From Folioceros fuciformis (taxonomy: Eukaryota), in the NCBI GenBank assembly GCA_049999805.1, contig JBNGIO010004535.1:1-38606 (forward strand): a stretch of DNA of 38,606 nucleotides. Reading direction: 5' to 3'. The notes under the pieces were generated by a model that searched no databases, had not been told where the DNA came from, and saw only the letters and a program-made list of their open reading frames with translations. Shown piece after piece: positions 1,681-38,500 of this stretch (positions within the stretch are counted from its first letter, which is position 1; each line of letters begins with the position of its first letter). The translations under genes and the position numbers were made by a program.

Positions 1681-1867
1681 CTCTTCATTGGATTGACATT
1701 AAAAATCATGGCACTTAAGGCCCGATACGAAGCCTGTCAACCTTCTCTTCATTGGACTGACATTAGAAATCATGGCACTTAAAGCCCGATACGAAGCCTG
1801 TCAATCTTTTCTTCATTGGACTGACATTAGAAATCATGGCACTTAAAGCCCGGTACGAAGCCTGTCA
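1681..1867 (+). repeat. 64-bp tandem repeat x3 upstream of the helicase gene
   Basis: cttcattgg starts at 1683, 1747 and 1811. Each near-identical unit carries ATTGG (reverse CCAAT), TGAC and GCCCG. Confidence 0.9.
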
Positions 1868-2383
1868 TTGTCGTGGCCTGAAAATCAAAACCAGCATGCA
1901 TGAAGGATCTCCAGTTTGTACTGGCATCCAAATCGACGGCCCGGCCGACGTACGCAAACACTCCATCCCTCTTCGTACACAACAGAATTCTGGTAAGCGG
2001 CGGCAGAGAGTTAAATGCACTCTTAACGGAGTTAAGCCAGTCTGGGACACTGTCACAAGAAGAAACGTGTGAGATGAGCCCACACAAACAGTTGCGATTC
2101 ATGGGCAGTGGATACTGACGTCATGCAGGATGTCATCATGCGTCTTAATCGCCGAAATCTGCCTGAAGGCATCTTTTGCTCAGCCTGTGGAGCCAGTGGA
2201 ACGGTCTTCGGAAGCTGTTTTCCGGGAAACCGAGGACGCTGGAGCAAGGCTCGCTTGGTGTCTGACTTGAGCTGTTCCATGTGTTTATCAGGTCGGGGAA
2301 GGTGAACCTTCAAGACTGGATACGAATTTTGTGGAAGTTTCTTGACTCCGGAAGAGCTTTCCTCCACCCACAAGACAATCAGC

Positions 2384-5300
2384 ATGGTGTCCTTGAAGGA
2401 GAAGTGGGACTCGCCGGAATGGAGAAGCGGTAAGACTGTACAGAGTGAGAATGTGCAGGATAATAGTAAAGGGAAGGGGAGAAAGATGGGAGCAGACCAT
2501 CACCAGAGCCTTCCGATTGACAAACACCGGTCCAAGATTTTGGATCATATAATGAAGAATCGAGTGACGTTTATCCAGGTACACTTTGTGAGGCAGACTG
2601 GGGTGCTTTGATTTGCATCACATTGTTTCACTTCCTGTGTGACAATCGCATGAATTGCGACGTTCGAGTCAGCGACGTGCCTTCTCGTCATGTGGCTGCA
2701 GGGAGACCCTGGGTGCGGGAAGAGCACGGCGGTGCCACAGTTTATACTGGATGATAATCGTTTCAGAGCGGCGAAGGTTGTGGTTACCCAGCCACGGCGT
2801 ATTGCAGCCATATCGTTGGCAAAGCGGGTTGCCCAAATGAGAAATCAGCTTGTAGGAGATGAAGTTGGGTACTGTGTTTCCAACGATCATATAACTGGTG
2901 GCGAGCACACCAGGCTTTTGTACATGACTAGTGGGTATTTGCTGGAGGTACGTGTCCTGTTGGTGCACCACGCTTGGCTGTTGTGGACTCGGTCTAGAAC
3001 TTGCAGACGCCATTAACATTGTTCCCCCAAACAGACGAACGTTGGAACTTGAGGAATGTGTATGCCTGTAGAAGCAGCTAGAACTATGACCGACAAGCGT
3101 ACAGCCATGCATTTCAATCGTGCTTAGGCGTCACCACCCTTGGTTTAGATTGTTCTGCAGACTGGCGGCTGGAGGCTGAATGAATGAAAGCCAGCCTTGT
3201 TCGTCATGCGCAGTGGCTTGGTTGCCAGTGGGACAAGACGAGGCCTTTGCAGGAATGCATGTCTCATCTGATACTGGATGAGGTGCATGAGGGAAACGCT
3301 CAGCAGGAGTTGCTCATGCTCATGGTGAAAAAACTCCTACACTGCGGCCAAAAAGCCTGCTCGGCATCCACCGGCTTCCCCAAGATCATCATAATGTCAG
3401 CGACACTGCAAGTGAAGCCTTTCCGCGACTACTTCGCGCCCTTCACTCGGCAGTTCAGCATCAGCAAGAGAGGAGGCTCCCGTGGGCCAACCATCCAGGC
3501 TTCGGAATCCTTGGACGACACCTTGCATGTCGGAGCGTATAGGTTTTCTGTAGACATTGTTTTTCTGGAGGAGATTTTGAAAGCCATCCCGACCCTTGGC
3601 TCTGCAGGGAAGGAGATTGTACGAAGGCTCCTCAAATTCCCAGCCAACGGTGAGTCCTTTCCCAGTTTTGCCTACTCTCTTGTGGTGCACCTTGTGAGCC
3701 AGACAGCACAGGCCGGGGATGCAGTGTTAGTGTTTGTGCCTGGCATGGGTGACATTGTGCGGCTGCAAGAGGAATTCAGACGCAAGTCAAGTGGAGCAGG
3801 AGACAAACGTTTGGAACTGTACTTTTTACATTCCTTGCTCGAGAAAGAAGAGCAAGCGGCGGCGCTGCAGCCACCATCTCCAGGTACTACGATCAGTCTT
3901 AGAATAATACGTACGATGGCACTAGACACACTTCTTCTCAAACGAGGCAGATGTTCATAAGCGTCTGACCGAGGCTGTGGAACCGCTCCGGGACGTCTTG
4001 CAGGAGCCGCCAAAGTAGTGTTGTCCACAGACCTTGCTGAGAGCAGCATCACCATCCCAGGAGTCAGGTTCGTGATTGACATGGGAATGACGAAGAGCAT
4101 GACGTTCGACAAATCTGTCGGGGTTCATAGGCTGTCCTGCTCGTGGTGCACAAAAGCTTCTGCAACGCAAAGAGCTGGGAGGGTTGGTCGTCTCTACCCA
4201 GGCACAGTATTTCGCCTCTACACCCGAGAAATGTATGATCATTTTCAGGCAAGCTGCTTATCCTAGACCACTTGATTGCGAGTGCTGAAGGTGGTGAAGC
4301 AAGGGATCCTCACTCTTTCCATTTCCACCTCGCAGTACTGGATTGCATTGGTCCTTACATGCAGGTTGCACGCATGTTTCTGTTTTCCTCATCTGACACC
4401 AGTTTCCAGGACTATACTGAGTCAAAAATTCGAGAACAAGAGATTCAGTACGCCTTGATCAAGCTCTTGAGCAACTTCACAGCGTTTGGCCCACCTATCC
4501 AGCTTGTTCAAGAAACGATGGTCCCTCCTGAGCCAACGCTGGTAGTCGACGCTATGAGAGCCCTGAGAAGTTCAGGAGCATTGATGTATTCCGATCACAA
4601 CAACTTCCATGATGCTAAGCTTACGGCACTTGGACGCTTAGCCAAATGTCTTGCAGGCGATGTTAAGGTGGCCAAGCTTGTGCTGAATGGTTTGGTCCTG
4701 AACTGCTCCCCTGACTGTGTTGTAATGGCAGCAGCACCGGAAAGTGACAAGGAGGACATATTCCATCGCTATCAGATCCATCAGTGCCAAAGGTAACACT
4801 CACATTGAATCCGATCTCAAACCACCTCACAGTCCTGTGACAACCGTAGATAAGTCTCACATTGGGGGAGGGGCGCTGTTTTACTGTGCACAGTGATCCG
4901 CTGAAAATTCAGAATAATCTGTGTGAGTCCTTCAAGACGAGAAAAAGGTTTGACAGGGGCCACTACAGTGAGCTCCTGATTTACCGACAAGTATATATCG
5001 AAGGCCAGCGGAATCAATTCACCAGAAAATGGTTAGAGCAGAACCACCTTAGCTCCCCTCGATTCGAACTTTTCACTCGGAGGATTGCAAAGTTTGCCAG
5101 CCATGTCTCAGAATTCCTTCAGACCCACAATTTGTCAGAAGGAATGAGTTTAGAGCTACAAAAGCTCACACTGCTTGCGCGACATGGCAAGGGCTACACG
5201 TTGGATTCATTTATATTCCGAGAGGACCTGACCATGGTTAAGCTTGCCATCACAGCAGCTTTTACAGACTGTCTGCTTGTCGGGGAAATTGCTAACAGTA

Positions 5301-8300
5301 GGCAAGCAGTGAACGAGTCCATAGAACTGCAGAAAGCAGGACTTCTTCCCTCTGTCTCATTCAAATTGAATGGAATCGAATCTGCTCCGGTGAATGTTGA
5401 GGAGTTAGGCAAAGTGCTTCAGGTATGCTATGTCACATTCAAGGCACAGCGTGTTAGAACGGAGTCACATGCCATGAAAATGATGTATCACCAGGTTTGA
5501 CACGTTCCAAAATGACTTGTGTTGTTGGACGTGTTCAGGTGGTAGGACCCTTTGCTAGGATTGTACCAAGTCCAACTCAAAATGGAGCAGCTCTAATCCA
5601 ATGTTACAACGCAGGAAGTCAAACAAACTGTTATGATTCTGTTGTCCAAGACCTCCCCCAAAGTTGTCTGTTACTGTTCCGTTTGCCGAGAGCAAGCGCC
5701 TCCAGACGAGCAACAGTAGTTCATCTTGCTGGGCAAAACGGATGCAGCGAAAGACACATTGGCCGACCCTCGAAAAGCAGGCAAATTGGGTGGTCTACAA
5801 TACTGAATGGACGTACTGTCAAGGTAAAGTGTGAACAGAGCAGCATATTGGAGCCAGCGTTCGAGATGAGGACAAGGGGAGAGGTAAACTTTCATCTCGC
5901 TGTGGCTCGCCAGGTCCTCGGGACAACTCGAAAGGACAAAGTAACCGCGCAGTGCGTAACCCTCTTGCCATCTCAAAACCTGTTTTCAGTCCTAGCTATT
6001 TTGCTATGTTGGCCTCCAGGGGAGCATGGTTTAGAGCTTCGGATGGATACCCGTAGCCAGAGGGTCTACTGTATCCGTATAGGACCAAGACTGAACCTTT
6101 CCCTGGCACCTAGGTACCTCATCTTGAAGCAACTTGACCTTATTGAAGTAGCTCGCATCAAAATGCATAGAGTGCTAGCCGGTGAAATGGTTCAGGGAAA
6201 TCTTGAGATGGACATAAGGATGATCCTCATGGCTGATACAAATCAGAAGCATCAAGCCGTTATGTCTCCTCAACTGGGGCCTTGGGTTCGGTATCCCTTT
6301 ATGATAAGTTCCGAGGAATGCAAGGTGAACATTTCAAACAACGGAGCAAAACACTTTAACGGTGTACACAAAGGAAAAGCGCGTAATGCTGCCCGGCAAT
6401 CAGTAAAATCAGTGGCATCCCTGGATGTTCGTTCTGAGGAGAGTGCGCCAACCAAATCCACGAACACTGTTCAACAGAAAAAAGTATATATTCCCAAGTG
6501 CGCTGATGAAGGGGCTAACCGATTGCAGCGAGGAGTTAACGACGTACACATGTCTTCAGATGAAGCAGTCCAGAGTTCTGGACAGTCTGTGACTGACGCT
6601 CAAAGGCCTCTGCTTATCTTTGCTACAGATGAATCATACAACCATGCAACTAGGGAGAAAGTCGCAGTCCTTGACTCATTACTCACGGAAGACATGGCTA
6701 CCATGCCCCATAAGCTTTTCAGTACAGCACCTGACCGACTGCAGGAAGAATTTAAGGAAGCACTCGCACTCGCTGATATGTCTTTAGATGAAATAGGCGA
6801 AAGTTCTGAACATGCGGGGAGTGAAGCACGCGAACTACGTCTGCCCGTGGAAGACAAGGCCATCGTACGCATTGAGTCAGGAGACAAGGCTACCATATTG
6901 AATGACCTACCCGAGGTTGCAAGTACAGTTACACCCGATATTCAGACCCTGCTCACTGCTTTCCAGCTGGTTGATCCAAGTCTCAGCCTGCAGATGGTGC
7001 ATGACTGGACCTCCGGGGAGAGATCTCATAATCAAAAGTTTTTTTCTCTATTAAGGGAGTTAGTCCTGATGTACCATTCTACAGAGGGGGAATCATTGGA
7101 CTGTGATGTTCCGACTGTTGTAGAGATCGTGCATAAGGAGAAACGAAAGCTTGTCAACAACAAACAGCAGGTACAAAATTGTTGATCATGATGTCTGTGA
7201 ATGTCCAGCCACGGTACGCAAACTTTGCAGCTGACTAACGCAGCCTGATTGTGCAGATGCAAGTCGAAACCTGGTACCACTCAGTATGCAATCCGGACAA
7301 ATCAAAGATGATGCCATTGACCGCTTGGGGCACTGCTCCACGTGAAAAAGTGCGAGTTGACAAGCAAGATGCTCAGTCATTCATCAGGCAACCATCTGCC
7401 ACTACAATCAGCAAAGAGCTTTCACTAACACTACCTCAGAGAAGCTTTCTTCTGCAGAAGTTGAAAAGTCAGCCGGTTCCTGAGGTGGACGTTTTTATTC
7501 CTGATGTAGCATCTAAAAGCAGCTTGGTGATGGTGTTTGGGGAACCCTTGCAAGTAGAGACGGCTTTGGGGTGGATCAGGTCTACAGTTCTTGAGCACAC
7601 GCCAGGAAAATGGCGCATTAACCAGACATATATGGACTCCCAAGACAGTCACCAGAGCATTCGTTTCGTGGCGATAAGTCAAACTCGAAACAGGCTGTTA
7701 TCAGAGTTTGTTGTACAGCTGGCTCCAGGACTTCGTTCCCCTTTGGATGTCAAAGCTCCATCCCTGTACCTTCCTGAAATATCGAGGGACTTTGGTAATG
7801 TTCTGCAGAGGGTACGCTCGGGGACAAAAGTCGAGATGCAGGGAAGACTTGGAAGGGTAGTTTTCTGCCAGAAGAAAAGCCAGGAGATCTTTTTGCCATA
7901 TGACGTCAGTCGGACACCAAACGTCCTCATCCGTCTTTTGACAGAAAAAAAAGTGCACAAGCAGCGGTTTGATGACGCAATCCAACCTGAGGAGTTTGGC
8001 TATTTACGTTCAGCCCTCGCCATCTGTCGCCCAAAAAAAATCTTCAGACACCAGTCCATCATTCTGCAGGTGTCCAGTTTGCAGAGGCAATCTGCAAACG
8101 AAGGCGTGAGAAAGCTGACTATAGTTGAATCTGACAGTCGACCAGGAAAACATATATTGCAGTTGGTGCAACACAGAGAAAGACTAGCAGCAGCAGACAT
8201 CGTTCGACTACATGTAGGAGCAGTACATGCAGATATACGACTTTGTATGACGGTATGTGTTTACAGACGAATTGCTCCCGAGTTCCAGAAACGAGAGACT

Positions 8301-11300
8301 ACTTGTCCCTGCTTGATCGAAACTCTGTTCCTTGATGTTGCAGACCACAGTGCAGAAAGGAGTAACGAAGGAAGACCAAGAATTTGTGGATGGTATCGAA
8401 AGAAGAGGTGCTATATTGTGGTTTCCACCTCATTATGTAGTGCACACCAAAAGGCTGAAGGAAATGGAGGTATTTCTGTTTCATGAGTTGAAGGTTTCTC
8501 TGGCTGTAGTCACCCAGGCACGTGGTGAAGGAGACTCAGTGATAAAACATGAGGTAGAGTTTGAGGTCGTGGATCCCAATGGAGATGGCTCCACTTCGTT
8601 TTTATCACCTGAAAGTGTACGAGAAAGAATGGAATTTCTTCTGAGAGAGATTCAAAGCATGTGTACCGAGTTAAGCTTGAAATTTGATGAAACAATTACC
8701 AAAGACTTAGCTGGGAAACTGCTGTTGCACTGGAAGATGCAGCATGGAAAGAGCCCACAGCTCCGCAAGTTGCTTGAACTTGGGTTGTCTGCAAACCCAG
8801 AGGAGAAGGATGGTGACTCTGTTCATCAATCACCTGCACACCCTGTCAGTCAGGGTTATGGGCGCAACACTAACAACAGTGAGCTAGTCTGTGACCTAGT
8901 GGAACACCTGCATCACTTTGATGGTTGCATCACGGCCAAAGATGATGTCGCTGCAACTGAACTGCTTATTGCAGTACTTCAAACACTTCATTCTATGAAA
9001 TTCTTGCTTGCCACAGGTGTCCAGGAGAGGGCGTGGATGTTGATAACAAGTAGTGAACTGAAACCAAAAGTTGCCCTCTGGTTTGCCTCTCTTGTTTCAA
9101 GAGATTGCTATTCCAAACATCATTGGGAGGATGTTCTGTGTCCTTACCTGTGGCAAATGGAGCTTGAACAGCAGCATGAGGAAGCTGATGAGCTGATCTT
9201 ACTTCTTGGCCTTCAGAAAAAGCCGATGAAAGTAGTTCTGAATGACCTTGCACGTGGTCCCAGCTTGAATAACATATTCTGTTCTCTCCGAAGACTGATC
9301 CACACCAACAATGCTCCGCAGTTCATGGCAGTTTTCTCACGCGCTCTCGAACAACAGAGTGCAATTCCTCCACGGCATTTAGAGGAAAATATGAAAAAGG
9401 TTCTTTGTCATCATGAATCAAGAGGTGCCAAATTCGTGCTACTATGCTCGGAGTGGTTTCTGCAAAGTTCAGAAAGCGAGGGAGACACAGACCACAAGTC
9501 AAGTCTTTTGTGGTTGATTGGAGTGATCAAAACACTAAACGTCCCAATCAGTGAGGAGTGCCGTTTGCTTGCATTGTCTCAGCTGATGGAATTCGCACCA
9601 GTGGAGATGGAAGCTCAAGACATTGAGGAGAAGATATTCAGTACATATCAAGTGGACGAAGCTCTATACAGAAACGAGCATTATCAAAGAATTTTGAAGA
9701 GCCTTTCACTCTCTCGTACACATATAAATGTATGTCGAGTCGAGAAACTCAATAAGTAGCACATGAGTTCTTCAACATGTCAGGGACCAAATCCGTCACT
9801 AAGACTTGCCTTCCTGTGCACACTGCAGGAGTTGGTACGCAGGGGGCTTGCAGAGAGCCAATGCCATATGTTTAAGACTTTACATCCTGGACATCGAGTC
9901 AAGGCAAGCTGTCTTATTCCTGGTGTGAATAGAGGTGGAGATAAATTGATAGGAAGCCCTGGAATCTTAATCCCTGCTCGAGACCCTACAGGTCAAATAA
10001 CTGGTGCCCAGATCAAGGTTGACAAAGTCAATAGTGGGAAGTATATCTGGTGGAGCAGTAAGAACGAAGGAGGAAGGGGACCCAGAGTGCGTGAAAGTTT
10101 GCCGTTGTTCTGCTGCATTCCAGAAGGACATGATTGTGCAGTTATTGGACTTTGTGAAGGTGCAGCACCTTTGTCTATATTGGAATTCAGATGTCCCTAC
10201 CCAACTTTGGTTTACCGTAGACGATCTTTGAGAGGCTTCGTACAGTTGAACAGCGACCACACCTCAGTAAAATCAGTCTTTGGGAGTGTACCTGAATTCT
10301 TTTCGCAGCTCCCTATCAAGCTTAGTAACAAACATGCTAAATGCAATGCAGGAGGCCTTAAAGCACATGTTGCTGCAGCCTTGAGTGGACTGCCAATGAT
10401 TGGAGCTTCTGGAGCGGCATTCCCACAATCAAGGAGCTTACTTGAGACATACTTGGCTATGCTCAAGCCCGCACAGATACTTTTCTTTCCAGATGCAGGT
10501 TCAACAAGTAATGACCAGGCAAGTTCCAATGCCCTTCATCTCTGTCGTACATTGATTTTCAGTGTGAGCATGGAAGACGAATGTTTCTTTTGATTGCAGG
10601 TAACACGGAGCTACTTCCACACATTTCGACTACTTCGTGAATGGAATTATAATTTTGTTATTGCATGGTGGGGCCAAGTGAACAAGGAAGATCACCTTGA
10701 TATCGATGACTTTCTCTGCACAAGTGAGTCTGCAGAGGAACTTTCGTTGTTATCAGTGCGCCAATTTTGGCAGCTCATCAATCCAGACGTGAAAACCAAG
10801 TTAGACGAAGAATTTTCTGAGTTGAGCAAGCCTTGGGAGGTTCGCGTTCAGCCCCAAGCTATAGACCTAGAGGAAACATTCACAGACACCGATGACATTA
10901 AAATCACAAGAATTCCGGCCTCGATAGAAAGCGTGCATACTCAGAAGTTCTTGATATCAATCCCCAAAGCCAGGATGACGAGGATGCCAAACCCACCAAA
11001 TGGATATGTCACACCTTCTTCTGTGAAAACTTTTTCCATAGAGGCCTCTATGGTGTCCGTGAACAATTTGCAAGAAATAGATCTACTAGTAGAGTGGTTG
11101 ATGCAAGGGGAGAAGGATGACAAGGCTATCATAGGGCTGGACTGTGAGCATGACCCTGATGGTACACTGAGACTCATACAGTTATCTGTTCACAGTCGAT
11201 GTCTGCTTATTCGCGTACCTTTCTTGACATCCAGGCACCTGTTCCAAGCTCCTATCAGGTACACAATGGGGACTTGTTCTGCCAGGTTCCATGTTGGGTT

Positions 11301-14242
11301 AGGTGGCTGTAGATAACGTACTTACTTCTGCAGGCTCTCAAGACTCCTTGCCTCTGTAACATACATAAAAACTGGAGCGGAAGTCCACAAGGATGCCCTT
11401 GCTATCTTCCACACCCTGGGACTTGTGGTCAATGGATGCAAGAACGTATCTCATGTGTATCGTGATAACAATCGTACGAATGGCATGTTACAGATATTCA
11501 GGTAAACAGCTAGCTTACTAAGTACTTTCTCACTTTCCCCTGAATACCGCACTGTCACGTTGGGATGTACAAAGGGTTCTCCCTGTCATATTTCTGTATA
11601 TGGATCCGTCCTGAACTTCACGTCATGAGAAGGGACACTGAATAGACCTAACCCAACTTGCGGCAGGGACTTGTACGGCTGGGACTGGAAAAAGGAAAAG
11701 TCTGTAAGCTGCAGTCATTGGGGTGGTGACTACCTATCACTTGAACAGGTTAGTCACAAGCACCTGCTACCTGGTGTGGGCTCAAATGGGTGGTCTATGT
11801 TAACAAAAGCAACCTGCATAGGACTCCTGCAGGCGGTACTAGATGAACTAATGCAATGCGCCTTGTCCAGATAAAGTACGCAGTCATTGATGCCTGGGCA
11901 TCTCGCATGCTGTCACTTCAAGGAAGGGCTGCAGAGGAGGGTGCCATTCCTTTGGTATCCTTGCAAGATGTTCCCGTGACGGTGCTCGACATTTTTGCTA
12001 GATCAATATCACACTCGGATACTCTGAAGAAGGAAGAAAAAGTAATCGAGGTCAGAAGGCAACATATTCTACTGGAGAACATAACAGCACCAAGAAGTTT
12101 TTATCTGCTAGGCTTTCAGCTCCCTTTTGCTTTGATCGATCAGAATTTGCTTGCTTAAGATTCCTGCCAACTGTCTGCACATCAGAGTCCTCATACTCGT
12201 GACTGAGGTGCTTGTGTGTAATCTAAATCAGGGGGAGGGAAATATCATGGCGCTTAACTGTGGGGCACTCCGACTACAACAAATTAAGTTCCGGTCTAGA
12301 GTTCTTGGGATAAAGTCTTCAGTTGAGATTAAGTTCAAAGATGGCCAGGAACCGAAAAAATATGCTGCCACAGCACGGACAGGGAAGACAGTCACGTTGC
12401 GCCTAATATCAACGTCAGCACCTACTTTTGAAGCTGACACAAAAGAATCAGGTACACATGTGTCATAGAAACCAGTGTCTTTAACTGCCTCGAAGTTACA
12501 AAAATGAGAATGCTAACAGTGGTTTACACATTCACCGAGCAGGACAGTGCCTAGATGTTTCTTCAATAAGCAGCATTGTCGTCGACAACAGAAAACACGC
12601 TAACAAGGCGAAAAAGAAATTGGAAGAAGCTCTTTATGGCATACTTTGTGCACCAGCGAAGTGCCCAGCCCTCTTACTTCGTGCACTTCACTGTAGCAAC
12701 ACCCAGAGAGACAACGTCATCCTCAAAGAATGGACTTCGACTCATTCAAGGGTGATGGCACTACAGCACATCTCTGGTGCTCTGAACAACTCTCAACGCA
12801 AGGCTTGGGAACAGATCTTGACATCTGATGTCTCAGCTACTATCGGTCCACCGGGGACCGGGAAAACAAGACTCATTGCAGCAGTCACCCAAGCATGGCA
12901 TGATTTAGCGGATGAGGGGCATGTCTTCCTCTGCACCGCTGTTCAGAATGTGGCAACCCGCCATGTTGCAGAAACACTTGTTCGGCAACAGGTATATTTC
13001 AACTCTCTCCTCTGTGAGTCCAGTCAATTTCCAAGTGAGACTTTCTTGTTGAAAAAGTCACGAAGGTTTCTTTCAAACGGCGCTGCAAGGTTGACCTTCC
13101 ACTGCTGTGCTATCTGTGCTTATCTGCTGTCTTCACATTTGCCGAAGGTACCCGGAGTCATGCTGCTGATCAGCCAAGACTACTACATGGAATGGCATGA
13201 ACATCTTTACAAGGACATCAAAGAATTTGTTATCATGTCAGCAGCTCGAAGCGATCTACTTTCGTCTCTCCATATTTGGGCTGTCACTAACAAGCGGAAA
13301 ACCCCGCGGATCCTTATTTGTACTCTCAGCTCGGTGGGTTCCCAAGCCTTCAACACAAGTCTCATGGGCGGAAAAGTGACCATGATGCTTGTCGACGAGT
13401 GTTCGCAAGCTGCAGAAGGCAGCATTTTGGCACCTCTGGTATGTCTACCCAACTTGCAACAAATTGGAGTTATGGGGGACCCCTACCAACTGCCACCATT
13501 CAGTGGGAGGCAAACCCAGGCAAACAGCGTGTATGACTTGATGGCAACGGGCTGCATCCCAACTTTACTGGAGGAGCAATATCGAATGCCTCCAGCTATC
13601 TGCGACTTCATATCATGCGAATTCTACAAGAAGAAACTGAGGACAGCTCCTATTCGCGAGAGACAGAAAGGAATCAGAACTCCACTTTTATGGGTCAATG
13701 TGAAGGGGCACAGTACTGTTCTACCTGGGAAAACCTCCTTGACCAACAAGGCAGAAGCAAATGCCATCATTACATTCTGCAAAAGCTACTCAACGCTCTC
13801 AGCTGGAAACATGGACACACAGGAGCCCAGAACACTTCCGACCAACAACGAGAGCCAAGAAGCAGGGAACATGAGTCTGGTAGTGCTCACTCTCTACGAA
13901 GAGCAGCGCCACCTCATCTCCAGCCTCATGCGTGAATCAAACCTAGAGTTCCAGGTCCACAACGTAGACTCATTCCAAGGCCAAGAGGCGGAAACTGTCC
14001 TAATCTCCCTGGTGGTTGCTGACAAGATATCACACTTCGCAGCGGATCCACATCGAGCCTGCGTGATACTGTCACGAGCAAGTAAGCTGATGTGCATATT
14101 CGGGAACCTGAGCAAAGTGGTAGACAACCCAAGAGCAGAAGTCTGGAGGAGGCTCGCATTACATTGTCAGCATCATGACTTCATTCTTCAAGAGAATGAC
14201 GTACAGTCGGTTGTGGAGGAAACGACACGACGACCAGCTTGA
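2384..14242 (+). CDS. Giant multidomain protein (~3210 aa): DExH/RHA helicase + HA2, KH-like, CYTH-like, helical region, TOPRIM-like domain, DEDDy 3'-5' exonuclease, Upf1/DNA2-NAM7-like SF1 helicase
   Basis: Predicted exons: 2384-2578, 2702-2947, 3214-3883, 4004-4248, 4410-4792, 4894-5422, 5539-7170, 7257-8252, 8344-9729, 9829-10159, 10352-10518, 10600-11258, 11334-11501, 11667-11748, 11871-12050, 12232-12451, 12543-12991, 13148-14242. All junctions are phase-compatible (total 9633 nt). DExH motifs: GDPGCGKST, TQPRRIAA, DEVHE, MSAT, STDLAESSITIP, QRAGRVGR. TOPRIM-like motifs: CEGGLKA, PDAG, AWWGQ..DIDD. Exonuclease motifs: GLDCE, YAVIDA. SF1 motifs: GPPGTGKT, DECSQ, GDPYQLPP, QYRM, VDSFQGQE, SRA. 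The 5' start is uncertain (possible extra exons in 1900-2430). Confidence 0.8.
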
Positions 14243-14314
14243 AAAGCAAGACTTGCTGTCTCATGTGAAGCACACAAAACTCTGTGGGCTACGGGCCACC
14301 GGGCCATCAGTACT

Positions 14315-14450
14315 CTCGAGAAGGAAGCTAATCTGCTTACACAGAACGCCTATACGCCTGAATTCTGCTTACCAGCCACGTACCACTCGAGAAGGAAGCT
14401 TGCTTACACAGAACGCCTATACCCCTGAATTCTGCTTACCAGCCACGTAC
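14315..14450 (+). repeat. ~70-bp direct tandem duplication between the helicase and PPR genes
   Basis: ctcgagaaggaagct...gaattctgcttaccagccacgtac begins at 14315 and again at 14386. Confidence 0.9.
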
Positions 14451-14702
14451 AATCTCCTAGCAGAGAACTCCTAGGAGCACCAGGAACCGACCAAGGCTGC
14501 ATCTACTGAACCATTGTACATCTCGAAGTATCTCAGAGTATGCATTACATGCTTGGGCTCCTCACCTGACCAATTCACACCCTGCCAAAGTCGTGCACAT
14601 GTAGCGAGAACCTGACCAAGCTGCCATCTGATGTCGCGCTGCTCAGAGCATCTGCCTGCTGAAGGAAACTGGAAATCGTTAAGAACTTTTCCACCAATCC
14701 GC

Positions 14703-22674: not shown

Positions 22675-24392
22675 ATGGGCACTTCGGGATCAAAGTTGGA
22701 AAAGGTTCTGGGAGATCAGTTCCCAGAAGGCGAGCGGTACTTCGGATTGGAGAATTTCGGCAACACGTGCTATTGTAACAGCGTCCTGCAGGTGACAGCT
22801 CGGTGACATTGGAATTGGAGTTGGTGTGGCTGGCGATGTGGAGTTACCTCTGAATTTTTGAGAGGTTTGTACGCGCTTGCAGGCTCTGTATTTCTGCGTG
22901 CCGTTCCGAGACCAGGTGTTGGAGTGCCGTAGCCTCCCCAAACCTGCTGGGGAGGCAGAGGAAAATCTTTTGACCTGCTTGTCGGAATTGTTCACACAGG
23001 TATGCCGTTGCTGCTCAACGACTTATTATTACCTCTGTGCCTGTGGGTTCTAATATGACATTCTTAGCTTTTTCTTTCTTCCGCCCTTGCAGATAACCTC
23101 CCAAAAGAAGAAGACTGGAGTGATTCAACCAAAGCGTTTTGTGCAGAGAGTCAAGAAGCAAAATGAGCTTTTCAGGAGCTACATGCACCAAGTATGTGAT
23201 AGCATGTTGTGTCGTGGCATGTGCCACAGGAACAGGTGGTCCATCTTTTACTCAGTTCTGTCTCCCTTGTATCATATGGACAGGATGCCCACGAGTTTCT
23301 GAATTTTCTTCTGAACGAGCTTGTTGATATTCTCGAAAAAGAGGCCGCCGAAACTGCAAAGTCGGCCTCTGGTAGCCTGGTCCAGTCAGAGAAGGTCTCG
23401 AACGGGAACGTGAACGGACGGACAAATGGTAACCATGAGAAATCTGCAGCAACCTGGGTGCATAAGATATTTCAGGTGAAGGAGGAAGCTGCCGGACCTC
23501 TGCTTTCTTTTGCCTGCCACTGGATTTGCACGTGTGTCTGCCTCTATTCGTTTTGTCTTTGGCACTGAGAGTCCCTTCTGTGGTAAACGACGTCTTACAG
23601 AGTGCAGCTTTAACTTCTTCTTTAAATCTGCAGGGCACTCTTACGAACGAGACTAGATGCCTACGGTGTGAGACCATCACAGCCAGGGATGAGACATTTC
23701 TTGATTTGAGTTTGGACATCGAGCAAAACAGCTCCATCACAAGCTGCCTGCGGAATTTCAGCTCCACCGAGACACTGAATGCTGAAGACAAATTCTTTTG
23801 TGACAAATGCTGCAGGTTGGCAAAGCCGAACCTCGGACAGTTCAACAGAAGCATCCTGTCCTTGTTTCTTTCTCCGTTTGAAATGTTGCACGATGACGGT
23901 AGCTGTCCTAACCCTTGTTGTCATGGCAGCTTGCAGGAGGCGGAGAAAAGAATGAAGATCAAGACACCCCCTCGGATTCTTGCGCTGCATCTTAAACGTT
24001 TCAAGTACATGGAGGCGCTTCAGAGGTACAAAAAGCTTTCATATCGTGTTGTGTTTCCCTTGGAGTTGAAGTTGGTCAACACGACAGATGATGCTCCCAA
24101 TTCCGAGGCAGAGTACTCCTTGTTTGCAGTTGTGGTGCATGTGGGCACTGGTCCCAACCACGGCCATTATGTCAGCCTTGTCAAGAGTCACAATCACTGG
24201 CTGTTTTTTGATGATGAAAATGTGGAGATCATCGACGAGTCGATAGTACAGACCTTTTTTGGGTCCACACAGGAGTACGCAAACAACACAGATCATGGTT
24301 ATATCCTATTTTACGAGAGTCCGGAGCAGAGACCTAAGGTTGGACAGAATCCCTTGCCTGATTTTAGAAAGGCCCAGGCCAAGCCTCTGTGA
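22675..24392 (+). CDS. UBP3: Ubiquitin-specific protease UBP3/UBP4 (USP12/46-like)
   Basis: Exons 22675-22791, 22883-22999, 23093-23191, 23284-23475, 23634-23815, 23930-24392. [11 protein letters not shown]-terminus, Cys box [29 protein letters not shown], His box [17 protein letters not shown]. Confidence 0.95.
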
Positions 24393-24888: not shown

Positions 24889-26171
24889 TCACCCCAATTC
24901 AATATCTTGGTAGGTAGCATCAGCTCTCTTATCAGATTTGTTCAGCATATTCACTACTTGCTTCATTGTCGGTCTTCTATCCCTCGTGTCTGCTAAACAA
25001 GCCAAGGCCACCTGCACGCATTCACAGACAGTGAGACTTGTGTTCATTGGCGTACGATGAAAGACGTGCAAAGAGTGGGTCAGTCTAGGATCAAGGCAGA
25101 CAAAACTGGAAACCTTGGCCACTTCTTCGATGCTCTGGAAGTCCTCGAGAGTGAGGCTGTCATACATAGTGCGATCAATGATCTCCCGAACTCGATTCTG
25201 CTTGATGAAAGGGACACAACGAGCCCTGATCTCGGGCTCCAATGAAGCCTGGTCCCAAGGACCTGTGCAGTTATTAGCTCCAGCAGCAGCGCCCCGAAGC
25301 TGAAAACATCTGATTTCTCTGTGAGCTGCCCGCTTCCATGGTACTCGGGATCAAGGTAGCCGAGAGTGCCCATCACTTTAGTGAAAACGTGGGACTTGTC
25401 GTGGGCCAATCTCGAAATGCCAAAATCTGCAACCTTGGCATCGAAGCTGCTATCCAGCAAAATGTTTGCCGACTTCACATCCCGGTGGAAAATGGGGGGC
25501 CTGGCCAACACGTGCAGATACATGAGGGCCTCGGCAGTGTGGATAGCAATATTCAGCCTTCTGCCCCAGTCTAGCTCAGTGATTTTCCCCTGACGAGCGT
25601 CTTGCAGGTGGTCCCATACGGTGCCGTTGGGGATGAACTCGTACACTAACAGGGGCACCTCATTCTCAATACAGCAGCCCAGAAGCCGCACCAGATTGCG
25701 GTGATTCAACTGGGACAGAATGTGAACCTCGTTCAGGAAGTCTTCCAAGTTCTTGGTTCCAGCATCGTTGGATTTCTTGATGGCCACCACCCTGCCGTCG
25801 TCGAGCCATCCCTTGTACACCGTGCCGAATCCTCCCTTTCCAAGCGCAGTATCAGGAGAGAAATCTTCCGTTGCCTTCTGCAACTCTCGGTACTGGAACA
25901 AAGTACAACGAGAGCTCCACGTCGCTTTCACTCTCTCAAGATACGAGGGATGCCTGGAATCAAGAGTTTTCGGCAATTCAGACACGGCGACATCTGTAGG
26001 TGTGGACATCTGAAAGGTAACATCTGGCACCCGGAAGTTTTCGAGAGTCTCCTTCCGTTTGAAAACGTAGCAACATAGCGCGAACTTGACGATGATGAGG
26101 CCCATAGCGCCGAGGGCGATCGAGGACGCAACGATGGCGAATACCACGGCGGAGGAGAGCACAAGGAGCAT
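24889..26171 (-). pseudogene. Receptor-like kinase with N-terminal membrane anchor and WAK/LRK10L-like kinase domain, frameshifted
   Basis: Hydrophobic N-terminal segment, GKGGFG, VAIKK, HRDVKSAN, DFG, GTLGYLDPEY. The frame shifts near 25262 (ELITAQ / PWDQ...CVPFIK in another frame). Last intron at 25012-25113. Confidence 0.8.
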
Positions 26172-27374
26172 GCACGATCACTCAACATGCTACCTGAGGG
26201 TTCGCAGCTAGTACCGGGCTAGGATTGAGCCTCTTGCTGCTTACCTATGAAAATTGTGTCACTCGGTCCTCCGTCCGCTGCATCATCATCAGACTGTCAT
26301 GAGAAAGCTTCGCCCCTAAGCTTCAACCACCTTACTGCACATCAAAACCTTCCAGAATCTCGAGCAACCAGGCCCTGCCAGGATAGAATCAAGACCTGCT
26401 AGGAAAGCGTCTTACAAGGTGAGTTACCTTGTGCAAGGCACTTGGTTCGAAACCAGAAGAGGACTAGAATCCATCGCATCCAGGCAGTGAGCGGCGAAGG
26501 CCCCGTTGCTGCCCTGCCCATGGCTTATGCGCTTCACAGTGGCTGCACCGTCGATCCCTGTCACCTTTCTAAGGCCAAGGAAGTGTAACACAGCACCTAG
26601 TTGGGATACTTGCCCGACTTCGTCAGAGACGTTAAAGATCTGTGGATCTTCGATGGACGTCTGCCTCCACATCTGTCATTTTGTATGCATTTCTGCCTAC
26701 GTCTGCTTCGAGAGAAGTTCCGGTGCTCCAGGGCTCTCCTGCTACATGTTAGACTTATCTCGTAGGGAGACAAGTCAATTGGGGAAGGTTGCACCCGGGG
26801 CAGGTGCAAAGCGGTCAGTCAAAGGAAACGCGGGGTCGCAGTCTCCCAGCATTTCCCATTGCCATGCTGTGACCGTGTAGCCACTGGCATCCCTGGGCTG
26901 GATATAACTTTGTCCTCAAGCTGTGCACCAAAGTTCGGCCTTCCGCGCGCTGCTCCAGACCTGCGGCAATGGGGCTAGCCGTAAAAATCAGGTGGCCAGG
27001 TCTGGGCCCCACCTATCCACTCGTGCAGCCGTGCCATGCTTCATGTATGACATCCATGGCTTGTGCATAGGGATACGGTCAGCATCTACGTATGGTTTTG
27101 CAGGGCACCGGCAACCGGTGAAAAACGGGCTGGCCATGCAGATCACGAGCGAACTACTGTCCTTGTTCTACAGCGCACACTATTACACTATACGCAATAT
27201 ACGTATACGAATACGCGTATATCTTCAATTAAATATTGACTTGCGCCTGCTTGGAACCAAGTCCCGCTTCTTCAGATTCTGCGGGCAGAACCAAGTCTCG
27301 CTTCTCGTCTTCCACGGGCAGAGATAGGCAAGTGTGTGTCTGCGTAGAAGGTTTGCCATTCCATTTTGGAGCCC

Positions 27375-29450: not shown

Positions 29451-31072
29451 CTAAGCCCTAGGCCCAGACAGTTCTATCGCCTGCAGAGGCTCTGAGCCGG
29501 AAACAGAGCTCGACAATTTCGGATGTTTCCGGAAGCTGCCACCGGTCGGCAAGACTTCACTCTCCAAACCATCACCCTGATAGAAAGCATCGGATTCAGC
29601 GCTAAAATCAGATGCGCCCACTTTGTTCAGTTCGCCCAATACTTGTGTCATTGTTGGTCTTCTATCTCTCGTGACTGCTAGACAAGCCACAGCCACCTGC
29701 AGGCATTTGTTTGCAGAAGGTGAGTGTCCCTTGGTGTACTATCAAGCATGTACTGAAACTGCTCATTCCCAAAAAGAGGGGCCAACAAATCCACAAACCT
29801 TTGCGACTCCTTTGATGCTCTCGAAGTCCTTTGGACTTAGGCTGTCAAGCAGAGTGCGATCAATGATCTCCTGAACTCGGTTCTCCCTGATCAAAGGGAC
29901 ACAGGCCTCACTGAGGTGGGTGACCTGCGATGAAGAGCTGTCCACGGGTTTCTGTGCAGTTATCAACTCCAGCAGCACCACCCCGAAGCTGAAGACATCT
30001 GTCTTGTCTGTGAGCTGCATGTTTCGGAAGTAGTCAGGATCAAGGTACCCGAGAGTGCCCTTCACAGCAGTGGAAACGTGGGTCTTATCTTCCTCCACCA
30101 ATCGGGAAAGGCCAAAATCTGCAACCTTGGCATTGAAGCTGGCATCCAGCAGAATGTTGGCCGACTTCACATCCCGGTGGAAAATGGGAGGGCTTGCCTT
30201 GATGTGCAGGTATTCCAGCGCCTCGGCAGTCTGGATAGCAATCTTAAGCCTTATGCTCCACTCCAGCTCAGTAGGTCGGCCCTGACGAGCTTGCTCCAAG
30301 TGCTCTCGAAGGGTGCCGTTGGAGATGAACTCGTACACCAGCAAGGGGACCTGCGTTTCCACACAGCATCCCAGAAGCCGGACCAGATTTCTGTGGTTTA
30401 CCTGGGACAGAGTGGCCACTTCATTCACAAACTGTTCCAAGTCCTGAGCTCCCCCATGCTTGGATTTCTTGATGGCTACCACAACTCCATTAAGAGATCC
30501 CTTGTACACCGTGCCAAATCCTCCGCTCCCTATCTGCTCGTAGGGAGAGAAATTCTGTGTTGCGTTTTGCAGCTCCTGGTAGTCGAAGAAAGTACATCGA
30601 GCACCCCCACTTGCTTTCAACTTCTTGAGAACTCCTGAGTAACCAGGCATGTTCCGCCCCTCGGAGTCAGCATAGGGGTGCGAGTGTTCGGACCGCCCCC
30701 GCCTTCGGTATCTGTCAATACCAAAGACTGCTAGGACGGCAGCGCTGATCACAACCACAAAGGGAATGATAATAGCTGCACGCAGAGGAGCGAGCAACGA
30801 TGCACATCAGGTCACATTTCTGCCTTGCCAATCGCCGACCAAAATTTGATGCTCAGGAGTCTGCAGCTCCAGCTCACATGTAGTGTGTAGTGTTGGCTAC
30901 CTGCAAGTGGAAGAGTCACTTTCTTTGACGATGCGGGTGCGCCCCCTACACCTCCTGGACTTGGCGCTGGGGTTGATGGCGGCTGTGCCGAACTTTGGCC
31001 TGGGCAAGTGAAAGGAAAGCCCAGCAGGACTGAAATCCATAGCAGCCAGGAAGCCAGCATTCCATAGCCCAT
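29451..31072 (-). CDS. Receptor-like kinase with signal peptide, short Pro/Ser/Ala-rich ectodomain, TM helix and WAK/LRK10L-like kinase domain
   Basis: Exons 31072-30901, 30775-29799, 29696-29451 (phase-compatible GT-AG). MGYGMLASWLLWISVLLG signal, QPPSTPAPSPGG, TM followed by RYRRR, GSGGFG, HRDVKSAN, DFGLSR, GTLGYLDP, RPTM. Confidence 0.88.
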
Positions 31073-35506: not shown

Positions 35507-38500
35507 TGTTAAGATACCCGTGTTGAGATACCCGACTTGCTTCTTGGATGGGACAATTCATTCCTCTATACGATGCACTGAACGAACGCTACAAACATTA
35601 TGTCCCTATCTTTGCACCGTATACCGCCGTCCCTTGTCTCTATCTCTATTCCATAGAGTGTCCGCATCTCAGTGCACATCAAGCACGCCTACTTGTTCTA
35701 CCCGACGAGACCAGATTCTCCACAACGAAGCTATCTCCGCAGCAGTTTCCTCCGCATGCTACGCACACCCCAAGCTCATGTTGTCACTCATGGCTGCTGT
35801 GACTTAGTGGGGAAGAGAAGTTCTGGTCACTGATTTCATTTCTGGAAGAATGTCTGATGTATAGACGGGAGGCTACTTGTAGCATCTCGAGGGGTTAAGT
35901 CTCTCAAGGAGACACAACTGTTCAGCTAATGAGTCACGACTATTCTGATCTCGATCGGTTGCAGCTTACATGAATGCATCACTACTCACACACCCCCTTA
36001 AGCTCAAACGTCGAGATAGGGAAATTATTGATGATATGAGAGTCCTAATGCAGAAGTGAACTGAGTGTGTTTGATCTTCGCAAGTGGTTTGGTGAAGATG
36101 TCCGCCACTTGTTCTTCTGTAGGCACATGTGTTAAACGCACCTCTCCACTCTCAACCTTGGAGCGTAGAAAGTGGTACCTGAGCTCAATATGTTTGGAAT
36201 GCTCATGAAATCTGAGATCCTTTGAGAGGGCAATTGTAGCTTGATTGTCGCATTGCAGCTCAATGAGTCCTTGATGTGGGTACCCTAGATCTTTCAGTAG
36301 TTGGGCCAACCACAGGCCTTCTTTGGCAGTAGAGGCAGCTGCAATATATTCCGATTCTGCAGAGCTGAGAGCTATGAATGTTTGTTTCTTAGCTTTCCAA
36401 CTGATAGCTCCTCCTGCAAGTAAGAAGACATAACCGCTTGTGGACTTGCGAGAATCGGGATCACCAGCCCAATCCGCATCAGTCCAGCCAATCAATTTGT
36501 CTTGAGCTTCTGGCCACCTTGGTATTTAATTCCCTTCTTCTTGGTGCCTTGTTGGTATCGAAGGATACGTTTGACGGCAATCCAGTGAGGTGGACTAGCA
36601 TTAGAAAGAAATTGAGAGGTCAACGAGGTTGGTAGAGCTATGTCCAGCCGAGTGTTTTGTACGAGATGTTGGAGGCTACCAACAGCTCCTGCATATGGGA
36701 TTGAGCTCATTTCCTCTACTTCTGTAGGAGTTTGGGGACACATCATCTTGCTTAGTCGAGGGCCTGTTTGCATCGGAGTGTTAGCAGGTTTACAGTTTGA
36801 CATGTTGAATTTGTCAAGGACATCCAAACCATAGTAGCTCCTGATGAAGTGTAAGAGCTCGCTTGGGGTGGATTGTACTTCACTTGAACACCCAAGCAGA
36901 ACTGCATTATTCCATTGTCCGTCATTTGGATTTTGCTAGATACTTCTCATCATTGGATATCATAATCACATCGTCTACGTAGATGCCCATCATCAGCATT
37001 CGGGGACCTACGTTTTTGGTGAATACACTGGCATCCACATTACTCTTGGTGCCTTTGAGAGATCTGTAACATTCTTCATACCATTTCTTACCAGATTGTT
37101 TGAGGCCGTAAAGGCTTTTATGAAGCTTACAGACCAATGCTCTTTGCCTGGTGGTATGTATCCATCAGGCTACTGGATGTAAATCTCTTCTCGGAGTATG
37201 CCATTTAAAAACGCAGTTTGCACGTCCAGGTGATGAACATGAAGGTTGTGCAAAGCTGCCAAGGCTAGCATGAGTCGAAGTGATGTTAGTTTCACAACTG
37301 GGGTGTATACCCGGTCTTCATAATAATCAATTCCATCTCGTTGACTGAAACCCCGGGCAACAAATCGAGCCTTCAGTCTTGAGACTTGGCCTTCGGCATT
37401 GTATTTTTTGCGTAGCACCCATTTGCTGCCCACAGCATGGCGTCCTGGGGGTAAGGATACAAGGCTCCAAGTATTGTTGTCCATCAGGGATTGATATTCG
37501 CTATCCATGGCCTTTCTCCATGCTGCTGCTTCAGGTCCAGCTAGGGCTTCATCAGTTGGAACTATGTTAGGTCGGTCAACTGTGTGAGCTGCTAGACCGC
37601 GTGTTGTGGGAAATTCCAAGTCATGGAATTTGGTGCTGGGAATTCCCTTAGTGGTTCTTGAAGAAGTGCGGACAGGAGGGATAGGAGCTGGTGTATTTCG
37701 CTCTAGGGGGCCATCCTCATGGTTTGCTTCTATTGTAAGTGGGCGTGAGGAAAATTGCAGATCAGGGTTGCTACCAACCTCGCTACTCTCTCCCCCTGTG
37801 AGTTGCAATGGAGGGAACGCCTGTGAAGGAGCTAACAGGGAGGTCATAACCAAATCGGCTGGGGTGGAACCAAATGAAGGATCCGGCGGCCAATCTGGGC
37901 CAAGGTCATCATCCGAAGAAGGGGCAGCCGAAGATGGTAGTGGTGGCATGGGTGGTGCCAAGGCAGCATATGGAGAAGGATCCGGAGCTGGGTTAGGGGA
38001 GGCTGGATTTGGCTGGTCGGTGGCGGGCAAAAAATTCACGGCAGAGAGTCGCTCTGAATCTGGTGCACCCCCTGAAGGGGAGAGGAGGGAGGCTTCATCG
38101 AAGACGACATTTCTGCCTAAGGTAACCCTGCGGGTGGCTCTATCAAGGAGTCTGTAACCCTTCACCCCGTCGCTTTTGCCATAGCCAATGAAAGTAAGTT
38201 TTACAGATCGCTGATCTAACTTACGACGCCCTTGTGCTGGGATGTGTTTGTAAGCCAGACAGCCAAAAATTCGAAGGTGGCTGACCTGTGGCTTCCAACC
38301 TGTCCAGATTTGGTAAGGCGTTTTATCTGGAAGGGTGGAGGTGCTACATCGGTTTTGAACGTAGCATACAGCTGCAGCAGCATCTGCCCATAGAACGTAA
38401 GGTAAGGTATTTGTGGCAAGAGAGCTTCTAGTGGCTTCCATGAGCAAGCGATTTCTCCTTTCCGCCTAGCCTAATTGGGCATGGGCATAGGGCACAATCT

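Follow-up and report, generated by a model that had tools for sequence, protein, structure and literature searches.

Eukaryotes prime DNA synthesis with archaeo-eukaryotic primases, and the organellar Twinkle/T7 gp4 lineage is the only DnaG-type exception known among them. In cyanobacteria, the replication protein CyRepA1 (Slr7037) is needed for autonomous replication of plasmid pSYSA and is described with primase and helicase domains in the available text of PMC9978351. The founder and the printed CyRepA proteins carry an N-terminal Pfam DUF3854 module, the function of which is stated to be unknown in the available text of PMC10079941. Ferns and other plants possess organellar mobile open reading frames (ORFs) termed MORFFO, and one of these has BLAST similarity to cyanobacterial DUF3854/primase proteins according to the available portions of PMC6220310, PMC10823028 and PMC13000998. 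Here we analyze a contig from Folioceros fuciformis (GenBank JBNGIO010004535.1, assembly GCA_049999805.1), the full 38,606 nucleotides of which are referred to as the window. We consider it rather likely that positions 9640–10830 encode a complete DnaG-type primase core from a cyanobacterial-plasmid-type family, set as an internal domain within a giant nuclear plant protein and presumably engaged in primer synthesis.

Results

A DnaG-like fold in the orthologue model

Conserved residues were identified in an alignment, A1, of 25 sequences comprising the domain of an orthologue from the liverwort Calypogeia fissa and 24 short relatives. Seven positions are invariant, namely the Tyr of KY.W, the Glu of.EG, the Lys four residues on, the two Gly of IGA.G, the Asp of PDAG and the first Trp of WWGQ, and twelve further positions are nearly so. 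The window domain retains all seven invariant and 11 of the 12 near-invariant residues, with one Gly replaced by Asn, and this retention of the conserved motifs suggests that the domain is likely to be active.

A structure predicted from A1 for the Calypogeia domain, which is 57% identical to that of the window, reached a pLDDT of 87.1 and a pTM of 0.88. In a Foldseek search of the PDB, the first 12 listed entries were DnaG-type primases (10 bacterial DnaG RNA-polymerase domains, mycobacterial ones included, and two phage T4 primosome entries) with E values of 7e-8 to 4e-5. Comparison by VIA-align gave Z scores of 15.7–17.6 for 12 DnaG RNA-polymerase domains, with 251–266 residues aligned over model residues ~2–297; the DnaG structures follow the model up to residue ~292–297. 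Scores were lower for T7 gp4, T4 gp61 and Twinkle (10.8–13.1) and lowest for the TOPRIM folds of topoisomerase, gyrase and RecR, which reached at most 9.2 and covered only model residues ~137–290. The two-subdomain fold of the DnaG core, an N-terminal subdomain followed by TOPRIM, is present in the orthologue model. A preliminary description of the window, made from its letters, had called the domain a TOPRIM module. It does contain TOPRIM and is primase-like, but the Foldseek and VIA-align comparisons extend it beyond a bare TOPRIM: as modeled, the domain is a whole DnaG RNA-polymerase core.

In sequence comparison with solved structures, the three best entries for a family profile searched against PDB sequences were the E. 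coli DnaG core at weak scores (E 0.27–0.38), and phmmer with the window ORF against the same sequences gave nothing useful. The profile alignment to E. coli DnaG pairs L.RGL, P[IA]R[DN]..G.I.G..R and KY with their DnaG counterparts in the N-terminal subdomain. An ESM Atlas feature search returned neighbors in TOPRIM, DNAG_N and DUF3854 clusters, which served as a lead and added nothing independent.

Within the model, the Glu E154 (Calypogeia numbering), invariant in 25 of 25 sequences and kept in the window as the Glu of CEG, ends strand 149–154. The invariant Asp of P-D-A-G, D202, follows strand 196–200, and D246 and D248 of the conserved D.D[DE] motif open the helix after strand 228–232. This placement of the Glu, the Asp and D.D[DE] indicates a TOPRIM arrangement in the model, and we take the three sites to be equivalent to E265, D309/D311 and D345/D347 of E. 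coli DnaG.

A spliced part of a plant gene

The primase-like domain (~270 residues) is spread over four exons of the plus strand, 9640–10720, or 9640–10830 with a short helical tail included (Table 1). In the unspliced DNA it appears as three successive ORFs in the same frame, 8317–9759, 9760–10593 and 10594–11316. All motifs listed in the preliminary description are present there; the motifs of these ORFs are RNEHYQRIL, ELVRRGL, IPGVN, GILIPARDPTGQITGAQIK, GKYIWWSS, LPLF, IGLCEG/GLKAHVAA, MIGASGAAF, LFFPDAG, SNDQ/VTRSY and IAWWGQVNK..DIDD, with slashes marking exon joints. The lengths of all three domain introns are divisible by three.

Two public sequencing runs, X1 and X2, were compared with window positions 1500–15600. 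A 2,968-nt contig from X2, belonging to a relative (~7–11% differing letters, roughly 90–93% identity), skips all three domain introns together with six downstream ones (after cut shifts, 11259–11333, 11502–11666, 11749–11870, 12051–12231, 12452–12542 and 12992–13147). A 1,686-nt contig from X1 with no differences from the window skips the 81-nt intron 3, and five of the downstream introns are absent from further X1 contigs. The intron 3 joint lies at 10515/10597 in the contigs, with 4 ambiguous letters; it is present in both runs, and with its GC donor the intron falls into a minor U2-type class. Gene models from Calypogeia and the fern Ceratopteris richardii read through both protein junctions (..CEGGLKA.. 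and ..CNDQVI.CYF..). Retention of intron 2 would insert 64 residues within the TOPRIM EG motif.

The host gene encodes, from 5′ to 3′, a DEAH-box (HrpA/HrpB-like) helicase, an unassigned region, the DnaG-like primase core, a 3′–5′ exonuclease and an IGHMBP2/Upf1-like SF1 helicase, the helicases and the exonuclease being identified by Pfam and NCBIfam matches. By tblastn, Calypogeia protein P0181 (3,343 aa) and Adiantum protein P0182 (3,025 aa) are collinear with the window over 2492–14218. Identity between the window and Calypogeia is 57% over the primase core (155/273) and 26–41% over the other long collinear segments, with two downstream stretches of ~50 residues at 49–50%. The primase core is under constraint in the liverwort, the ferns and F. 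fuciformis.

Skipped introns of GT–AG, GT–AG and GC–AG type, and eukaryotic neighbors encoding a PPR-DYW protein, kinases, a ubiquitin C-terminal hydrolase (UCH) and a copia reverse transcriptase (RT), mark the locus as a spliceosomal nuclear gene. The domain is a nuclear, intron-bearing, expressed part of a plant gene. The intron-skipping contigs, the in-frame fusion and the adjacent plant genes thus bear out the three spliceosomal introns and the nuclear integration proposed in the preliminary description. Bacterial contamination, mis-assembly or a gene-model artefact has next to no probability and no supporting point was found for it: the domain shares one reading frame with flanking eukaryotic exons, transcript contigs skip its three introns, plant nuclear genes lie on both sides, and other plants show the same architecture on contigs of chromosome scale (15.9, 114 and 147 Mb). 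Splicing, plant neighbors and conserved architecture exclude such an origin for practical purposes.

Relatives on cyanobacterial plasmids

Relatives were sought with the window ORF 9829–10518, in which intron 2 is read through and adds 64 residues. Out of 1.84 billion cluster representatives, 260 proteins matched at E ≤ 1e-3, 22 at E ≤ 1e-10 and two at E ≤ 1e-30. The two best, at E 5.6e-40 (59%) and 6.1e-40 (57%), are a 2,695-residue protein of C. fissa and a 2,837-residue protein of C. richardii. The best bacterial match stands at E 8.3e-19, and the remaining matches are mostly proteins of 1,000–1,400 residues in which the matched part covers approximately residues 100–370. At the level of sequence, the similarity of the domain is far beyond chance. 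A local phmmer search with the intact Calypogeia domain matched 175 of 180 stored proteins, collinear over ~270 residues. Compared by BLASTP with the two bacterial relatives of highest score, the Calypogeia protein is 40% identical to P0003 over 278 residues (E 1e-49) and 38% identical to P0004 over 304 residues (E 2e-45), and the rest of its 2,695 residues shows no similarity to either.

A pattern scan of one genome per species across 185,579 prokaryote species yielded 56 confirmed loci, 52 of them with cyanobacterial titles. The other four come from a Candidatus Sericytochromatia metagenome-assembled genome (MAG), a Rhizobium MAG contig, an Enterobacteriaceae MAG contig and an 'uncultured bacterium'. 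The domains of the MAG contigs labeled Rhizobium sp. and Enterobacteriaceae (L008 and L015) group among cyanobacterial sequences in the tree, and both are likely mis-binned cyanobacterial plasmid contigs. Among 72,556 plasmids, the window ORF matched 15 records, all cyanobacterial, three of which are annotated 'plasmid replication protein, CyRepA1 family'. With the intact domain the number of plasmid records rose to 85 at E ≤ 1e-5; the best 60 of these 85 are all cyanobacterial and 16 of the 60 are annotated as CyRepA1 family. A set of 50,697 phage records gave two weak matches only. As had been anticipated, the species-genome and plasmid searches show the non-plant relatives to be N-terminal domains of large proteins from cyanobacteria. 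These proteins are often encoded on plasmids, and many are named or modeled as CyRepA1. One relative, from a Prochloraceae cyanobacterium MAG (P0019, 1614 aa), has two tandem primase-like domains (37–301 and 401–633) with a DnaG zinc ribbon between them and a CyRepA1 helicase region after.

Two N-terminal modules of CyRepA1-type helicases

The CyRepA1 model NF042913 (595 positions, cut-off 200 bits) covers the helicase region downstream of the shared domain. Of the 40 large homologues with the best scores, 20 match it in the part that follows the domain, and in 16 the match exceeds the cut-off. P0003 and P0004, which are not sisters in the tree, are without it, and there was no match in three whole plant proteins or in the window ORF pieces. 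The plant domain aligns to the N-terminus of the annotated CyRepA1 protein of a Nostoc sp. C052 plasmid and of the 20 large homologues with NF042913. The relationship to CyRepA1 suggested in the preliminary description therefore holds for the N-terminal module, which is homologous, but does not extend to the helicase region, so that the module alone is shared.

The DUF3854 model, PF12965 (cut-off 23 bits), had no match in the window pieces at E ≤ 0.1, in the whole Calypogeia and Ceratopteris proteins P0001 and P0002 at E ≤ 0.001, in six close bacterial relatives at E ≤ 10 or in seven algal relatives at E ≤ 1. In two cyanobacterial genomes with plant-type loci, PF12965 matches 12 other ORFs of ~1,000 residues and none of the plant-type loci, and it is likewise without a match on the plasmid of Nostoc C052, where the plant-type domain belongs to a gene annotated as CyRepA1. 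NF042913 was additionally present in four of five such DUF3854 ORFs. The occurrence of NF042913 with either DUF3854 or the plant-type domain indicates that CyRepA1-type helicases come with two alternative N-terminal modules, which clarifies the cyanobacterial side of this family: the primase-like module may be DUF3854 or DnaG-like.

The two modules are probably remote relatives, as judged by sequence. An hhalign comparison of the family profile with DUF3854 paired the EG, D-strand and K..DD motifs at a probability of only 5%. A divergent set of eight proteins that includes P0135 has matches to the plant domain and, in every member, to PF12965 above its cut-off. These proteins combine the module with other replicative helicases (D5_N/DUF5906, DUF927 and AAA_25/DnaB_C), an association that fits a primase role in primase-helicase replication proteins. 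The DUF3854 relationship first suggested is accordingly a remote one, carried by the P0135 group and the weak hhalign pairing, and does not amount to membership, given that the plant domain has no PF12965 match.

Distribution in eukaryotes and time of entry

A size-matched search retrieved three Calypogeia paralogues on one 15.9-Mb contig, plus proteins of C. richardii, Adiantum capillus-veneris and A. nelumboides, so that full-length collinear homologues are found in a liverwort and three ferns. The Calypogeia paralogues P0001, P0181 and P0174 are 85–95% identical in the domain and lie on the same 15.85-Mb contig; P0001 and P0174 resemble partial or split models of the full 3,343-residue architecture. 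In the searches made, no seed-plant, moss, green-algal, red-algal or glaucophyte member appeared; these searches used length windows and had word-index limits, and absence is not established. The sharing of one full-length architecture by the liverwort, the three ferns and F. fuciformis points to a fusion no later than the bryophyte–fern common ancestor.

A profile of the unlabeled sequences nearest to the plants retrieved 14 proteins, including a 558-residue partial protein of the dinoflagellate Prorocentrum cordatum, a transcript of the diatom Eucampia antarctica named 'DUF3854 domain-containing' by UniRef, and a EukProt transcript. The proteins of this algal clade are short, with the domain at the C-terminal end and without a helicase. 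The EukProt transcript (P0198, 473 aa) has an N-terminal retropepsin-like motif by eye, with no Pfam match, which hints that some algal copies reside in mobile elements. Metagenome and viral contigs related to P0011, P0020 and P0055, plant sisters that were then unlabeled, yielded distant relatives only, at no more than 45% identity.

In a FastTree phylogeny of 175 domain rows, the seven plant rows form one clade with a support of 98. A quick IQ-TREE search of 84 rows (LG+C20 PMSF) gave the plants 94 and placed them as sister to three unlabeled sequences at SH-aLRT 93. A careful IQ-TREE search of 69 rows by 273 columns recovered the plant clade at 100/98 and the 14-row algal clade also at 100/98. 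In this unrooted tree a 93/97 split separates all 43 cyanobacterial-type rows from the plants, the algal clade and the DUF3854-positive group, and the branch placing the plants relative to the algal clade has a support of 55/43. Nesting of the plants within cyanobacterial Rep proteins, which the preliminary description had named as support for its reading, was not shown: the 93/97 split sets the plants apart, and the tree is without a root.

The preliminary description had also raised capture from a Nostoc symbiont of a hornwort. The plasmid matches do include Nostocales plasmids, as well as a CyRepA1-family gene from Nostoc sp. C052, a strain obtained from the liverwort Blasia. That a symbiotic lineage such as a hornwort recently took up the domain from the replicon of a Nostoc-type symbiont is nevertheless very improbable: collinear homologues of the same architecture are found in C. 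fissa and three ferns, with related domains in a dinoflagellate and a diatom; the single plant clade (100/98) contains long internal branches; identity to bacterial sequences reaches only ~40% at best, and 31–35% for the Nostoc C052 protein; and the domain, itself interrupted by three introns, continues in frame into domains of eukaryotic type.

We infer instead that a bacterial replicon, most likely of the cyanobacterial plasmid type, was the source of the module, which entered before the split between bryophytes and ferns. A bacterial source is argued by the bacterial and phage character of DnaG-type primases, by a family that counts hundreds of bacterial clusters and only a few eukaryotic ones, and by a patchy eukaryotic distribution. 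The entry may be shared with the related domains of the dinoflagellate and the diatom, and three origins are considered: horizontal gene transfer (HGT) into the land-plant stem, an older entry shared with secondary-plastid algae, and a route through an organellar mobile ORF.

The second of these would involve a single very old entry into eukaryotes, by endosymbiotic transfer from the plastid ancestor or early HGT, followed by vertical descent, heavy loss and passage to secondary-plastid algae, rather than a transfer specific to land plants. We regard this scenario as possible if rather doubtful. The 14-sequence clade (100/98) with P. cordatum, E. antarctica and the EukProt transcript adjoins the plants; the plants joined three of these sequences at SH-aLRT 93 in the smaller set; and forcing plants and algal clade together gave a likelihood 1.59 lnL units above the free search (p-AU 0.586), the tested group having been named after seeing the tree. 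The deciding branch, however, has a support of 55/43. Length- and word-index-limited searches turned up no homologue in a green, red or glaucophyte alga, a moss or a seed plant, and the algal proteins are short, differ in architecture and come partly from transcriptome records, which can include contaminants.

The third route would bring the domain to the nucleus through a eukaryotic mobile element, be it a virus or the MORFFO ORFs found in organelles of ferns and other plants, and not directly from a bacterium. Five IMG/VR contigs hold relatives, and the similarity of one MORFFO ORF to cyanobacterial DUF3854/primase proteins points the same way. We nonetheless give this route a slim chance. 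The published MORFFO matches, as far as the available portions of those sources go, include P4-type primase C-terminal (helicase) proteins, suggesting another domain, and the phage records hold only the two weak matches. The MORFFO ORFs resemble the plant domain as sequences of seed-free plants with such BLAST similarity but, from their available published description, on which alone they were compared, are organellar, mobile, short and intron-less.

Entry from a cyanobacterial plasmid-type replicon before the bryophyte–fern divergence would make this a datable bacterium-to-plant domain transfer; if the algal relatives share its origin, the module has survived in several plastid-bearing lineages.

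Discussion

Comparison with described systems

The closest structural counterpart of the plant domain is the bacterial DnaG RNA-polymerase domain (PDB 5guj, 4edg and 1dd9), with the same two-subdomain fold over ~260 residues at Z 15.7–17.6 and the same motif order (L.RGL, P.R[DN]..G.I.G, KY, an EG strand, a D..G strand and a late D.D[DE]). Sequence identity is only 11–16%, the DxD motif is D-A-G in the plant-type family, and DnaG has an Asp at the site of the Lys in the EG..K of the plant family. Also unlike DnaG, the plant protein has neither an adjacent zinc ribbon nor a DnaB-binding C-terminal domain, and its domain lies inside a eukaryotic multi-helicase protein. Twinkle and T7 gp4 share the DnaG-type primase fold, and Twinkle is likewise nuclear-encoded in a eukaryote, but at Z 10.8–13.1 they match clearly less well than DnaG, and no SF4 helicase follows the plant domain. 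A Twinkle-type best match was the alternative that the preliminary description had set against its own reading; the closest solved structures are bacterial DnaG instead. We reject Twinkle-like ancestry on the basis of these ranks, and no Twinkle-like protein was retrieved among the best 150 of the 260 matches, which were characterized.

At the sequence level the nearest family is CyRepA1 (NF042913; founder Slr7037 of pSYSA), with 30–40% identity over ~270 residues to the N-terminal module of many members. It differs from the plant proteins in its NF042913 helicase region, and the N-terminal DUF3854 of the founder is another Pfam-level family (PMC10079941, available text). DUF3854 (PF12965) resembles the plant domain as a TOPRIM-type N-terminal module of CyRepA-like and other primase-helicase proteins, yet the plant domain, its orthologues, and the algal and closest cyanobacterial relatives are all without a PF12965 match. 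The plant gene is thus a eukaryotic variant, in a new fusion architecture, of a known kind of enzyme.

Overall, a second, independent DnaG-type core appears to be fixed in a eukaryotic nuclear gene, joined to two helicases and an exonuclease, from a parent family otherwise typical of cyanobacterial plasmid replication proteins and with a module that has no Pfam or NCBIfam model of its own. No published description of the plant gene was found in the available parts of the CyRepA1, MORFFO/DUF3854 and plant primase-HGT literature; the supplementary tables of HGT surveys could list the gene.

What the domain may do

From its conserved motifs and the orthologue model, the domain is proposed to be a metal-dependent nucleotidyl transferase that would make short primers or oligonucleotides. 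Its templates would be single strands exposed by the flanking DEAH and Upf1/IGHMBP2-like helicases, with the N-terminal subdomain binding the template and the TOPRIM fold binding metal, and the adjoining 3′–5′ exonuclease may trim the products. If active in this way, the protein would be a new kind of plant nucleic-acid enzyme.

Several observations weigh against the reading of this region as a cyanobacterial-plasmid-type primase core in an expressed nuclear gene. The modeled structure is that of the Calypogeia orthologue domain and not of the window's own spliced protein. DxD is reduced to D-A-G in the whole family, the second Asp being absent in all members, and with one Asp only the metal site may differ from that of DnaG. 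Family scans detected no zinc-ribbon family on the window's upstream ORFs or on the orthologues (the bacterial relatives carry a Cys-rich motif or Zn_ribbon_DnaG upstream of the domain). The missing adjacent zinc-binding domain in plants and the D-A-G motif together call for caution regarding primase activity. Neither Pfam nor NCBIfam recognizes the plant domain in the window exon pieces or the whole orthologues. On the side of origin, most metagenomic relatives are without a taxon label and three MAG contigs are labeled Rhizobium, Enterobacteriaceae and 'uncultured bacterium'. The tree is unrooted and without an outgroup, and the plants are not nested within labeled cyanobacterial rows, so that the direction of transfer rests on distribution and not on topology. 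With respect to expression, the X1 contig of the same organism is unbroken over 9493–10515 and thus retains introns 1 and 2, of which intron 1 has a stop. This is the sole X1 contig here, and full splicing of the domain is therefore shown only in the relative, X2. The X1 retention could be an unspliced precursor or regulated intron retention. The RNA status of both runs is itself a guess, as they were taken as transcripts because their contigs skip GT–AG and GC–AG introns.

The same residues and missing parts bear on whether the domain still polymerizes. It could instead be a TOPRIM-type nuclease or phosphodiesterase, or a non-catalytic nucleic-acid-binding or scaffold module of a helicase-exonuclease protein. 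TOPRIM folds also serve nucleases and topoisomerases, the founding CyRepA papers give the function of their N-terminal module as unknown (available text of PMC10079941), and both the reduction of DxD to D-A-G and the lack of a detected zinc-binding domain beside the plant domain would agree with such a change. We consider it unlikely, however. D-A-G is common to all bacterial replication-protein relatives and hence no sign of plant-specific decay; all seven invariant residues are kept; and the DnaG-specific N-terminal subdomain, which nuclease and topoisomerase TOPRIMs lack, is present and conserved.

Beyond a primase core making short primers, a broader role can be imagined, which we hold to be distinctly unlikely as a full account: the giant protein could be a nucleic-acid surveillance or repair machine containing a domesticated plasmid-like or MORFFO-like replication module. 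Here a DnaG-type primase outside the organelles would make short RNAs on helicase-unwound strands beside an exonuclease, which may mark or restart stalled or foreign DNA or RNA. Such a bacterial-type primase activity outside the organelles would, if true, be a first for land plants.

The giant gene and its surroundings

The features of the host gene and of its neighborhood are collected in Table 1.

Table 1. Positions of the host gene, its parts, the exons and introns of the primase-like domain, and neighboring ORFs in the window.
Feature	Positions	Strand	Remarks
Whole host gene	2492..14242	+	Multi-exon, ~3,300 codons
N-terminal DEAH-box helicase region (HrpA/HrpB-like)	2492..4770	+	Family matches, tblastn
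Upstream exon end, first helices of domain (YRNEHYQRILKSLSLSRTHIN)	9640..9729	+	ORF 8317-9759; aligns to Calypogeia and bacterial domain starts
Intron 1	9730..9828		Junction 9729/9829; 99 nt, GT-AG, in-frame TAG 9757-9759
Exon: N-terminal subdomain (L.RRGL, IPARD..G.ITG.QIK, KYIWWSS, LPLFCC) and first TOPRIM strand to Glu of CEG	9829..10159	+	
Intron 2	10160..10351		Junction 10159/10352; 192 nt, GT-AG, phase 1, splits CEG/GLKA, no in-frame stop
Exon: central TOPRIM part (GLKAHVAA, MIGASGAAF, LFFPDAGSTSNDQ)	10352..10518	+	
Intron 3	10519..10599		Junction 10518/10600; 81 nt, GC-AG (CAG/GCAAGT ... CAG/G)
Start of next exon (exon runs to 11258): last TOPRIM strand and acidic motif (VIAWWGQVNKEDHLDIDDF), short helical tail (LSLLSVRQFWQLINPDVK)	10600..10830	+	
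3′–5′ exonuclease (DNA_pol_A_exo1-like)	11100..11870	+	Several short exons; PF01612 on orthologue P0001, tblastn collinearity
SF1 helicase (AAA_11/AAA_12; IGHMBP2 family)	12540..14242	+	Family matches; intron joints from transcript contigs
Ubiquitin C-terminal hydrolase (UCH) ORF	23466..24392	+	
Protein-kinase ORF	25080..26177	-	
Protein-kinase ORF	29763..30806	-	
Ty1/copia-type reverse transcriptase with retroviral SH3-like domain	37170..38465	-	

No Pfam or NCBIfam family matches the stretch of approximately 1,300 residues that separates the DEAH helicase from the primase core. Within this region, window 5458–8486 on the plus strand, corresponding to P0181 residues ~950–1720, comprises more than 1,000 residues that are 26–30% conserved among F. 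fuciformis, the liverwort and a fern. Directly downstream of the giant gene, an intron-less PPR gene of 928 codons (15692–18478, plus strand) encodes an E motif and a DYW deaminase domain of the RNA-editing factor type, and this adjoining PPR-DYW gene identifies the window as land-plant nuclear DNA.

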